Shown piece after piece: positions 6,360-8,921 of a stretch of 64,000 nt of DNA; position 1 is the first letter of the stretch, and every line of letters begins with the position of its first letter. A program made the translations under genes and the position numbers. Source of the DNA: Escherichia phage T4; the sequence record NC_000866.4. One strand, 5' to 3'. The notes beneath the pieces were generated by a model. That model did no database searches and was not told where the DNA came from. It was given only the letters and a program-made list of their open reading frames with translations.

Positions 6360-6623
6360 TTATTTCATATTATTGAAATATTCTTCTGCGATTTCGTCGT
6401 TATCATGGTAAACTTTAGAAGACAGTTTAACATAACTTTCAGCAGTGAACATGTTAATCACAACCTTTACAGTATACCACTGACCGTCTTCATTACCCAT
6501 TACTGCGTAAGTTTCAAACATCGGATGGTCAGGACCGATAACTTTAATATCATTCACCGTACGACCGAAATCTTCTGAAACACATTTCATAAAGAAGTTG
6601 AAAAGTTCACCGTAATTATCCAT
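6360..6623 (-). CDS. hypothetical protein (T4 e.8 position)
   Basis: start moved to the internal ATG at 6623 (SD GGAGAATAAA upstream) because the longer track ORF (to 6686) would begin upstream of its own promoter. Confidence 0.55.
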   Translation of the reverse strand: MDNYGELFNFFMKCVSEDFGRTVNDIKVIGPDHPMFETYAVMGNEDGQWYTVKVVINMFTAESYVKLSSKVYHDNDEIAEEYFNNMK

Positions 6624-6666
6624 TTTATTCTCCAAGTTATTTTCTGTATCAGTAGTTGATAGTTGT

Positions 6667-6696
6667 ATAGTACCATGGAAGAACAAGGATGTAAAC
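6667..6696 (-). promoter_or_regulatory. early promoter (-35 GTTTAC, -10 TACTAT) upstream of e.8
   Basis: minus-strand GTTTAC at 6696..6691, TACTAT at 6672..6667, conserved CTATCAACTAC leader downstream. Confidence 0.5.
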
Positions 6697-6828
6697 AGTT
6701 TTGTGAAAAAATTTTTAAAAAGTTTTAGGGAATTCTAGGGCGGAGAGGGGCAATTAAAAGATAGGATAATATATTATAAAGGGTATAAACTAAATGATGC
6801 CTAGAGAGGTCTGGAAAGGCTTAGATAC

Positions 6829-6857
6829 CAAAAAGCCCCAACCTTTCGGTCGGGGCT
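6829..6857 (-). terminator. rho-independent terminator ending the tRNA / stable-RNA transcription unit
   Basis: minus-strand transcript forms GCCCCGACC-GAAA-GGUUGGGGC (9-bp stem, GNRA loop) followed by UUUUU. Confidence 0.65.
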
Positions 6858-7172
6858 AACCGTTGCGGCAACCTTGTCGGGGTTCCACCTGCCAAGGCAA
6901 GTGTTTGTACGAAACGCCGGGATTCGAACCCGGTTATTAAGTAGTTGACGCTACTCAATATTTTTAAAAGGCCATATCTCAACCATATCCGAACGTTCCG
7001 TCAAAAACGCTACTCGGCTTACGGCAAAGATATTTCCTCGAATCGATAATTTGGTGCGCCGTTTCTGCTGTGATGTAAGAGGGCATCAATAAACGCAAAG
7101 ATTATTAACGCAATTCCTTACTCAGGGAACCATCAGTCCGACGACTTACCGGTAGCGACCCGGTTTCTCATT
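6858..7172 (-). ncRNA. two small stable tRNA-like RNAs (T4 species 1 / species 2 RNAs, rnaC and rnaD); internal boundary not resolved
   Basis: non-coding ~315-nt interval between tRNA-Arg and the terminator; contains a tRNA-like T-arm (CCGGG-UUCGAAU-CCCGG); matches the position of the T4 stable RNAs. Confidence 0.45.
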
Positions 7173-7247
7173 TGGTATCCCGCCCTGGGATCGAACCAGG
7201 ACCGCAAACTTAGAAGGATCGTATGCTATCCATTACACCAGCGGGAC
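7173..7247 (-). tRNA. tRNA-Arg (anticodon TCT), CCA encoded
   Basis: reverse complement reads GTCCCGC...CCTTCTAAG...GGTTCGATCC...GCGGGATACCA with a paired acceptor stem and canonical T-arm. Confidence 0.85.
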
Positions 7248-7252
7248 GTAAT

Positions 7253-7918
7253 TTAAAATTTCATTTTTCGACCTTTAAACCATCCTTCTGGAATTGGGTC
7301 AGTTTTCTTAATACGTTTAGAAACTTTTTCATCTAATGAATGAATCCACATCATACCGAATTGGGAATTCTTTTCACCTTTCTGGTGATTATTTTTGGCG
7401 TGAGATTCTTTCATTTTATTAATAGTTTCAGGAGTATGATGCTTATTTAGAAATCTGCTATTATTTAAAAATTTTTCCCTGTATTCAGGAGTTGACCACA
7501 AACGTTTAAATACATTTGAACCAATTTTACGATATTTTTCTTGAAGTAAAATATCATTTTCAAAACGTGACTTAAACGATTTAGCTCCTTTTAAGCTAGC
7601 ATCTTTCTTCTGGTTTAGCATTCCAGGAATATTTACATGATCCCATCCACCTTCACCGCCAAGTTTTAAATTATACACATCTGGTCTATTTAAAAACTCT
7701 TCTGTGACAATATTTTTCTCGGCTTCAAGCATAGATTCTTTATCGTCAAAATACTCTAATATTTCTTTAGAAAAATTTTCTATACCATATTTATCTTGGG
7801 CTCTTTTTAATAATTTACCAGAACCCATATATCCATCATCTAAATTTTCGGTAGAATGCACACCAATATAAATTTTATTATTAATTTTATTTGTTATTTT
7901 ATAAGTGTAATAGAACAT
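7253..7918 (-). CDS. segB: GIY-YIG homing endonuclease
   Basis: 221-aa ORF with GIY-YIG motif (KIYIGVHSTENLDDGYMGSG); inserted between tRNA-Ile and tRNA-Arg as in T4. Confidence 0.85.
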   Translation of the reverse strand: MFYYTYKITNKINNKIYIGVHSTENLDDGYMGSGKLLKRAQDKYGIENFSKEILEYFDDKESMLEAEKNIVTEEFLNRPDVYNLKLGGEGGWDHVNIPGMLNQKKDASLKGAKSFKSRFENDILLQEKYRKIGSNVFKRLWSTPEYREKFLNNSRFLNKHHTPETINKMKESHAKNNHQKGEKNSQFGMMWIHSLDEKVSKRIKKTDPIPEGWFKGRKMKF

Positions 7919-7959: not shown

Positions 7960-8033
7960 TGACCCAGACCAGATTTGAACTGGTAACCTTTCCCTTATGA
8001 GGGGACTGCTGCTAACCATTGAGCTACAGGGCC
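7960..8033 (-). tRNA. tRNA-Ile (anticodon CAT; would score as Met by anticodon alone)
   Basis: reverse complement GGCCCTGTAGCTCAATGG...CTCATAA...GGTTACCAGTTCAAATCTGGT; last tRNA of the 7-gene subcluster, the position of T4 tRNA-Ile. Confidence 0.8.
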
Positions 8034-8627: not shown

Positions 8628-8921
8628 TTACCATTTATGATGATACGTATTTACGATACATTCAAGACCCAAAGGATTCTTGAAAATATCATATTCAAGA
8701 GGACCTTTTTCTGTTTCAATAAAGAAATCAAAATTTACTGTATTAAATTTACGGTCTTCCTTTACTAATTTAACTTGAGAAGATGAACGATCAATGTAAA
8801 CCTTTTCAACTTCAAAACACGTTAAAATGCCATAATCATCAATCAAGGCTTTAGCTGCTTCTTGATCATATTTATATCCATTTTCAACGGATGATACTTT
8901 CGCATAAAGAATCATCATCAA
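8628..8921 (-). CDS. hypothetical protein (T4 tRNA.2 position)
   Basis: 97-aa ORF; ATGA overlap with the upstream ORF. Confidence 0.55.
   Translation of the reverse strand: MMMILYAKVSSVENGYKYDQEAAKALIDDYGILTCFEVEKVYIDRSSSQVKLVKEDRKFNTVNFDFFIETEKGPLEYDIFKNPLGLECIVNTYHHKW

Follow-up and report, generated by a model that had tools for sequence, protein, structure and literature searches.

The distal end of the transfer RNA (tRNA) operon of Escherichia phage T4 encodes two small stable RNAs, rnaD and rnaC, followed by a trailer and the operon terminator. This is the identity that sequence comparison gives to positions 6829 to 7172 of the 64,000-nucleotide T4 stretch analysed here (the window; record NC_000866.4), in which both RNAs are transcribed from the minus strand. 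Comparison with related phages shows both to be under selection for structure across genera, with two distinct architectures. By covariation, rnaC is a conserved folded RNA, a cloverleaf-like, tRNA-shaped four-way junction, and in rnaD a short hairpin at the 5' end precedes a long irregular rod with an invariant C-rich internal loop. The explanation set out below (identity, two architectures, a predicted kissing loop in rnaC and a proposed maturation) is very probably correct as a whole; the function that goes with it is a tentative guess.

Two catalogued stable RNAs and no protein

Species 1 RNA (rnaC) and species 2 RNA (rnaD) are an already known, long-catalogued pair of T4 stable RNAs. The minus strand of 6800..7260 is 99.3% identical to T4 genomes and 99.6% identical to GenBank X03016, which covers the T4 tRNA region. 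The 268 nucleotides at 6905..7172 are 100% identical to X03016, where 'species 2 RNA' and 'species 1 RNA' features lie exactly here in the order tRNA-Arg, 'species 2 RNA', 'species 1 RNA', 'pot. terminator'. The genomes of T4T, RB55 and RB59 label the same positions rnaD and rnaC, 'small, stable RNA'. Sequence, position, order 3' of tRNA-Arg and terminator are all the same; the locus is that one. An earlier sequence-only reading of this DNA had proposed a match to the two small stable RNAs of T4, and these records bear it out.

On the minus strand, tRNA-Arg(TCT) with its encoded CCA occupies 7247..7173 (ARAGORN; Rfam tRNA, 48.8 bits; X03016 and T4T annotation) and is the upstream neighbour of rnaD in a common transcript. 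The rnaD gene, 120 nucleotides as annotated in X03016 and T4T (7171..7052), begins 1 nucleotide past tRNA-Arg and ends in ...GGCGCACCA; its covariance model, R2, scores 127 bits over 7050..7172. A spacer of 6 nucleotides, AAUUAU (7051..7046), read from the sequence and from the gap in the X03016 annotation, places a U at position -1 of rnaC. The 137 encoded nucleotides of rnaC (7045..6909; X03016, T4T) run from C1 to a U at the discriminator position, and its covariance model, R1, finds a single match in the window, of 160.4 bits over 6906..7045. After this U comes ACA (6908..6906); [A/C]CA is kept in all copies, and X03016 ends species 1 at 6909. A 3' trailer of 48 nucleotides (6905..6858), outside both annotated RNAs and forming small hairpins on folding, leads to the intrinsic terminator AGCCCCGACC-GAAA-GGUUGGGGCU plus UUUUU (6857..6830), found by a terminator scan and marked 'pot. 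terminator' in X03016. With a stem of 10 base pairs, seven of them G-C, a GAAA loop and a U run, it has the features of a Rho-independent terminator.

The sequence-only reading had described one tRNA-like stable RNA region reaching from the first base past tRNA-Arg to the end of a strong terminator. Its limits and its terminator are exactly right, and the stable RNA stands: a discrete species is documented in the literature, by Northern blot of RNAC (PMC9697503). The single region does not stand, as the interval holds two separate RNAs and the 48-nucleotide trailer, with tRNA-likeness in rnaC only.

Could the interval encode a protein? On the transcribed strand only two short TTG-initiated open reading frames (ORFs), of 39 and 53 amino acids, overlap it, and neither frame is kept open across 33 homologs, which rules out a hidden conserved ORF over rnaD or rnaC. 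Open frames vary by clade, close relatives of the locus differ by 1-nucleotide indels, and one homolog has no stop-free stretch of at least 25 codons in any forward frame. The judgement that the region has no plausible ORF thus extends to related phages. In many deposited phage genomes, a 'hypothetical protein' coding sequence or a 94-nucleotide 'tRNA-Lys(ttt)' is annotated over rnaC and rnaD (as in loci L003, L004, L006, L017, L226 and L227). Because no ORF is conserved, these calls misannotate structured RNA genes.

The Rfam search that had been proposed for this interval returned no family. At gathering thresholds the window yields its eight tRNAs only, with no 6S, signal recognition particle/4.5S, Y RNA or known small RNA family. 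At E values up to 10, the matches over rnaC and rnaD within 6600..7400 are at noise level, the best being tRNA-Sec, which scores 17.5 bits where gathering requires 47. Membership of a known Rfam family was therefore rejected for both RNAs. The comparative alignment proposed alongside it revealed abundant compensatory changes in both.

Architecture of rnaC

BLAST matches to the rnaC locus occur in approximately 800 phage records. Copies were taken from GenBank phages of Tequatrovirus, Gaprivervirus, Karamvirus, Kanagawavirus, Gelderlandvirus, Winklervirus, Moonvirus and Marfavirus, from IMG/VR and from metagenome contigs; a metagenome scan gave at least four true contigs among the matches listed, the rest being mostly chance. 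Thirty distinct sequences were aligned with MAFFT and folded with RNAalifold, and the covariance model R1 built from the result aligned 37 copies, 33 of them distinct, the alignment being fitted to the model. In this alignment the paired share of cells is 98.8%, compared with 87.2% for shuffles, compensatory changes occur in 24 of 42 pairs, and none of 500 shuffles reaches any observed measure; slid controls are 36-52% paired. The MAFFT/RNAalifold run, which is independent of the model, has 38 pairs, 23 with compensatory changes, and agrees with the model-fitted alignment. The T4 sequence alone also folds better than chance, with a minimum free energy of -50.1 kcal/mol (z = -4.36; 0/200 shuffles as good). 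The extensive pairing that had been claimed for the whole region therefore holds for rnaC on a single sequence.

In this fold, an acceptor-like stem is stacked on a canonical T arm, and a long irregular arm (P2-P3), a joiner and a hairpin, P4, stand in for the D and anticodon arms. The 5' strand of the acceptor-like stem P1, CGAUUCG (7039..7045), pairs with CGUUUCG (6916..6910) with support from covariation. Its seven positions are C1-G, G2-C, R3-Y, an invariant U4U5 opposite UU, C6-G and G7-C. Position 3 is A-U in 13 and G-C in 20 of the 33 distinct copies and is unpaired in none; the remaining four Watson-Crick pairs and the tandem U.U are invariant. P1 runs without a linker into the invariant P2 (AGG/CCU, 7038..7036 with 6971..6969) and then into the long arm P3, the two covering 6972..7038. 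Thirteen of the 14 pairs of P3 carry compensatory changes, and in two clade types its stems have wholly different sequences with the pairing kept.

The 9-nucleotide, A-rich joiner UUUAAAAAU (6960..6968) is unpaired in the consensus and has four invariant positions. It is followed by P4 (6936..6959), a hairpin of 9-10 base pairs at the position of a class II variable arm, with compensatory changes in eight of nine pairs and a conserved 6-nucleotide loop, CGUCAA (6950..6945). P4 ends 1 nucleotide before the T stem. The T arm CCGGG-UUCGAAU-CCCGG (6917..6933), whose middle pair is seen as G-C, U-A and A-U, is the one that the sequence-only reading had picked out; it belongs to rnaC only, and is the sole part of rnaC that a tRNA-type covariance model picks up. 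It abuts the 3' strand of P1, after which come U and then ACA. Copies of the Marfavirus type encode U-CCA where the others have U-ACA.

Two observations concern the T arm. In copies of the Kanagawavirus/Winklervirus type (L005 810..950, L019 527..667, L025, L037 and L039), the T loop is UGCAUGC or UGCAUCC instead of UUCGAAU, and the T stem is kept. In addition, the invariant 5' end of rnaC, CGRUUCGAGG (7036..7045; CGGUUCGAGG in most genera), repeats the T-arm string GGUUCGA (6921..6931). This repeat may go back to an internal duplication, or it may offer a second site to an enzyme that reads T loops.

How is the body of rnaC closed? The apical loop of P3, UUGACG (6 nucleotides, 6999..7004), is the exact complement of the P4 loop, with 6/6 complementary positions in 37/37 copies. 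In five copies of the Marfavirus type, the two loops have changed jointly, from A-U to G-C, to UUGGCG and CGCCAA. The chance of 6/6 Watson-Crick matches is approximately 2.5e-4, and the energy of the duplex is -7.5 to -9.4 kcal/mol. Pairing of the two loops in a kissing loop that closes the rnaC body is thus a strong prediction, not a demonstration; if it forms, no anticodon can be presented. The ColE1 RNA I/RNA II and HIV TAR/TAR* kissing complexes likewise join two hairpin loops with perfect complementarity; those of rnaC have 6 nucleotides each. In contrast to those complexes, the two loops of rnaC lie within one molecule and their contact is predicted.

Like the class II tRNAs (Ser, Leu, Tyr and Sec), rnaC has a 7-position acceptor helix stacked on a 5-base-pair T arm with a UUCGAAU loop. 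A stem-loop precedes its T stem by 1 nucleotide, and at its 3' end the discriminator leads into an [A/C]CA tail, again as in those tRNAs. Within the interval, an acceptor stem of tRNA type on a 5-base-pair T stem with a 7-nucleotide loop is found in rnaC only, with the tandem U.U inside P1. Unlike those tRNAs, rnaC has no D arm and no anticodon arm with a 7-nucleotide loop; it has P2-P3, the A-rich joiner and P4 instead, with 6-nucleotide loops. Its acceptor stem carries the tandem U.U, its 'variable arm' has 9-10 base pairs and a loop predicted to be tied to another loop, and its scores fall below the thresholds of tRNA models. Neither ARAGORN nor Rfam (RF00005) calls a full tRNA cloverleaf at 6829..7172.

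Several non-coding RNAs, among them YrlA (bacterial Y-RNA-like), mascRNA and the tRNA-like structures of plant viruses, use the shape of a tRNA for handling by tRNA enzymes or for protein binding. Relative to YrlA and the other tRNA mimics, rnaC is set apart by a body predicted to be closed by a kissing loop and by the lack of an Rfam family at threshold. No Ro/Rsr partner is known in E. coli.

Architecture of rnaD and distribution of both RNAs

The structure of rnaD emerges only by comparison with other phages, as the fold of the single T4 sequence is not above chance (z = -0.76), and on that sequence the claim of extensive pairing fails. An alignment of 23 distinct close homologs supports a 5' hairpin and a long irregular hairpin after it, and gave the covariance model R2, which extended the set to 27 distinct sequences, the last alignment being fitted to the model. 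R2 found divergent copies in Marfavirus and in IMG/VR contigs that carry Karamvirus- and Kanagawavirus-like rnaC, and a weaker one in a Kanagawavirus record. Across the 27 sequences 95.3% of cells are paired and 14 of 24 pairs have compensatory changes, values that 0/500 shuffles reach.

The 5' hairpin H1, ACCGG-GUCGCUA-CCGGU (7148..7164), has compensatory changes in all five pairs. The rod is closed by a terminal stem in which covariation pairs the 5' strand GUCGUCG (7139..7145) with CGGCG[C]AC at 7061..7054 (3' strand CGGCGCAC, 7054..7061); 98% of its cells are paired, with one compensatory change, from G-C to C-G. Within the rod, GUUCCCUG (7123..7130) lies opposite AUCACAGC (7074..7067), the two making up an asymmetric internal loop rich in C. 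The UC.CUG core of GUUCCCUG shows no variation among the 29 copies aligned. The invariant pieces of rnaD (AAG.CGUC, UC.CUG, CA.A and GGCG) correspond to the terminal stem and this internal loop.

Is rnaD also a tRNA mimic? Its 3' CCA is specific to T4, other homologs having CCG, CAG or CCU. Since the CCA is not conserved and nothing tRNA-like is detected, rnaD is not one. A tRNA-like rnaD was rejected for these reasons (no tRNA match) and also because a minihelix would need H1 on the other side of the terminal stem.

Some further features of the rnaD sequence were noted. The Marfavirus homolog (L017 41..185; also L022 and L024) has an insertion of approximately 47 nucleotides in H1 and a shortened distal rod, and lies approximately 415 nucleotides upstream of rnaC with a tRNA-Met in between. 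On the plus strand, the antisense of H1 followed by a T-rich run resembles a terminator (7148..7164), which is probably non-functional. At 7131, within rnaD, the window has an extra G (GAUGGUUCC) that T4T and each of the 22 other distinct rnaD homologs lack and that only the 1985 record X03016 shares; it also has C/G swaps at 6862 and 6860, directly before the terminator. These are possibly legacy sequencing differences.

At least eight genera of T4-like phages carry rnaC homologs in their tRNA clusters, and in Karamvirus, Gelderlandvirus, Winklervirus and Citrobacter phage Ursula the gene sits flush between tRNAs. The two RNAs are independent modules. The Dhakavirus phages MX01, AnYang and IME08 have rnaD with no match to rnaC, and at several loci of Karamvirus and Gelderlandvirus there is an rnaC, tightly flanked by tRNA-Trp and tRNA-Gly, with no match to rnaD.

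More distant T4-like phages have tRNA clusters at the corresponding loci, anchored on gp2 (identity at most 62%), and neither model matches there; on one of these loci the rnaC model found no match even with its filters off. One orphan T arm in a more distant T4-like contig (L179 16753..16843) belongs to a tRNA-Tyr-like gene with a GUA anticodon and a long variable arm, which is missed by ARAGORN and by Rfam at E up to 0.01; L186 holds several further orphan T arms. A host homolog of either RNA was rejected, as blastn of rnaD and rnaC in 5,426 E. coli genomes gave no match. Among 185,579 bacterial and archaeal species genomes there was no credible match either, and the only loci that fitted the search pattern, in Actinobacteria, are not recognised by the rnaC model.

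Maturation, function and neighbouring features

How would the two RNAs be released from the operon transcript? Host tRNA-processing enzymes would cut it to free rnaD and rnaC, as suggested by anatomy, by the tight packing between tRNAs in other phages and by literature of the 1970s-80s. RNase P would cleave at C1 of rnaC by way of the 12-layer acceptor/T minihelix, a step suggested by anatomy and older literature; with this minihelix, a U at -1 and an [A/C]CA tail, the anatomy of rnaC fits an RNase P substrate. The 3' ends would then be trimmed by exonucleases, and the ACA of rnaC would be replaced by CCA. Paddock and Abelson are said to have sequenced species I RNA as a 140-nucleotide molecule. 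Since the X03016 feature has 137 nucleotides, CCA would appear to be added after trimming, and in mature T4 rnaC it has probably taken the place of ACA. Species I RNA is reportedly cut in vitro by RNase III, and a joint precursor, p2Sp1, was reportedly studied by Apirion's group. Maturation of this kind would give both RNAs a tRNA-like stability; excision by the host tRNA machinery may thus account both for that stability and for their obligatory residence in tRNA clusters.

The role of these RNAs is still called unknown in papers of 2010, 2022 and 2025, as the sequence-only reading had stated (PMC3014915, PMC9697503, PMC12685909). A dual-omics study of 2022 detected RNAC on a Northern blot and assigned both RNAs to the late class (PMC9697503), and the 2010 review of post-transcriptional control in T4 called the functions of both unknown (PMC3014915). 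In experimental evolution reported in 2025, every line of the T4-like phage BW1 that evolved on a semi-permissive host acquired a convergent single-nucleotide polymorphism, which lies in the rnaD homolog (PMC12685909). Sequenced in the 1970s and abundant in infected cells, rnaC and rnaD are among the oldest orphan non-coding RNAs.

We tentatively favour a reading in which both are trans-acting, protein-binding RNAs that serve as accessory, host-dependent fitness factors, rnaC being a non-decoding tRNA mimic. As such, rnaC would occupy a host or phage protein that recognises tRNAs, and neither RNA would have a core function. The invariant acceptor stem with its tandem U.U, the equally invariant P2, the contact predicted between the loops and the rnaD internal loop suggest that a protein reads a precise three-dimensional shape, and do not suggest a base-pairing seed. 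This conservation pattern, together with the patchy distribution and the host-adaptation polymorphism, is the reason for preferring accessory RNAs that bind protein. Deletions of the T4 tRNA region are reportedly viable on laboratory hosts.

A more specific proposal is rather doubtful. In this proposal rnaC represents an undescribed RNA family, absent from Rfam, of tRNA-processed mimics in which the anticodon half has become a domain closed by a kissing loop. With the rod-shaped rnaD, it would serve the phage to counter or hijack the host by binding one particular host protein that recognises tRNAs; a defence enzyme aimed at tRNAs and a factor in tRNA maturation or translation are examples. 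Recognition would be through the invariant acceptor stem with its tandem U.U.

The handling of tRNAs in infection has recently gained importance, since tRNAs are the target of many anti-phage systems and the tRNA region of T-even phages acts as an anti-defence locus (PMC13096335, PMC11555353). Finding the role of rnaC and rnaD would add an RNA-based layer to the way in which T-even phages handle host tRNA biology. What is new here (structures backed by covariation, a mutable tertiary contact in rnaC, likely protein-contact features, the distribution among genera, the absence from Rfam and the misannotation) makes the question of function more testable, without answering it.

One candidate in this direction was a decoy role of rnaC for Septu/retron-type nucleases that cut class II variable loops. 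The cut reported in E. coli tRNA-Tyr, at C48/A49, falls by our count inside CGUCA, a string shared with the P4 loop CGUCAA; we regard the match as a coincidence. The decoy was rejected, as T4 and wild-type T6 remain sensitive to Septu. According to a 2026 paper, Septu cuts tRNA-Tyr, and the segB/tRNA region of T6 is a locus that can be amplified and that counters this defence. In that work, SegB is the driver of segmental amplification at anti-defence loci, one of them the tRNA-Tyr locus beside segB in T6; rnaC and rnaD are unmentioned, and T4 was unable to escape Septu.

Several points weigh against the favoured account. Kanagawavirus/Winklervirus-type copies of rnaC with a UGCAUGC T loop show that the canonical T-loop elbow is dispensable, so that strict tRNA mimicry at the elbow is unnecessary. 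The kissing loop rests on a single evolutionary event and on invariance, and the loop-loop contact could instead be intermolecular, or each loop could be bound by a third party. RNase P cleavage, CCA addition and the viability of deletions draw on older literature and inference, and the Septu-type decoy scenario is unsupported. Moreover, the reviews and omics papers give neither RNA a partner or a phenotype (PMC3014915, PMC9697503, PMC12685909).

Might the two RNAs act in cis only? They could be structured spacers that offer entry sites to RNase P and RNase E and protect the neighbouring tRNAs from exonucleases, with stability as a by-product and no function in trans. In keeping with this, both always form part of a tRNA cluster or close it, with tRNAs a few nucleotides away, and rnaC has exactly the minihelix that tRNA-processing enzymes recognise. 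However, a processing handle needs just that acceptor/T minihelix, and selection has preserved the two 6-nucleotide loops, the A-rich joiner, P2 and, through compensatory changes, the entire long arm across at least eight genera, as it has the invariant internal loop of rnaD. In addition, most tRNA clusters of related phages do without either RNA. A purely local role is therefore unlikely.

An action as base-pairing regulatory RNAs on phage or host mRNAs is less probable still. The 2022 omics paper labels them 'small regulatory RNAs', without evidence (PMC9697503), and the single-stranded A/U-rich joiner of rnaC is conserved. By contrast, the conserved nucleotides belong to stems, to internal loops and to the two hairpin loops that complement each other, and not to an accessible seed, and the terminator hairpin with its U tail is lost from the mature RNAs. 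As of 2010, no trans-acting regulatory RNA of T4 had been functionally characterised (PMC3014915).

It is very improbable that rnaC is aminoacylated and, like the tRNA-like domain of transfer-messenger RNA (tmRNA), has a role at the ribosome or donates an aminoacyl group. The acceptor-like stem, the T arm, the discriminator followed by CCA (encoded in Marfavirus copies), the class II-like variable-arm hairpin and a weak resemblance to tRNA-Sec would all suit such a role. tmRNA is processed by tRNA enzymes, and rnaC resembles it in carrying an acceptor/T-arm module on a large non-tRNA body. By contrast, rnaC lacks G3.U70 (position 3:70 is A-U or G-C), a conserved tag ORF and the pseudoknot series of tmRNA; it matches no Rfam tmRNA, ARAGORN, which can find tmRNAs, calls nothing here, and most copies encode ACA and not CCA. 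C1-G72 with U73 fits no known E. coli identity set.

Finally, the region can hardly be a relic or odd tRNA gene, that is, a 'tRNA-Lys(UUU)' of 93-94 nucleotides or a tRNA-Sec-like gene with its 5' end at ACGGAACG: although MK327928 and MK327940 annotate tRNA-Lys(ttt) over the 3' 94 nucleotides, the Rfam tRNA-Sec (RF01852) match at 6909..7001 follows the same alignment, and the alternative 8-base-pair acceptor helix (ACGGAACG with CGUUUCGU) is 89.6% paired, that helix has zero compensatory changes and shuffles do equally well or better. Its fourth pair is unpaired in 14/30 sequences, and in the 137-nucleotide form the 3' column of this pair shows perfect covariation with position 3, so that covariation rules out the 93-nucleotide fold. 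The tRNA-Sec score lies far under the gathering threshold, the 'UUU anticodon' falls in the region of P2 and the joiner and lacks conservation beyond Tequatrovirus, and the annotated 5' end of the mature RNA is 44 nucleotides further upstream. Strong purifying selection across genera excludes a decaying pseudogene.

Around the two genes, the tRNA cluster is interrupted directly upstream of tRNA-Arg by the homing endonuclease gene segB (7253..7918, minus strand). The tRNA at 7960..8033 (minus strand) is tRNA-Met(CAT) by ARAGORN and tRNA-Ile in the T4T annotation, presumably a case of a lysidine-type CAU anticodon. An exact match to the T4 late-promoter consensus, TATAAATA, lies upstream of the cluster at 8869..8876 (minus strand) and could be the source of the 'late' class of rnaC and rnaD in RNA sequencing.

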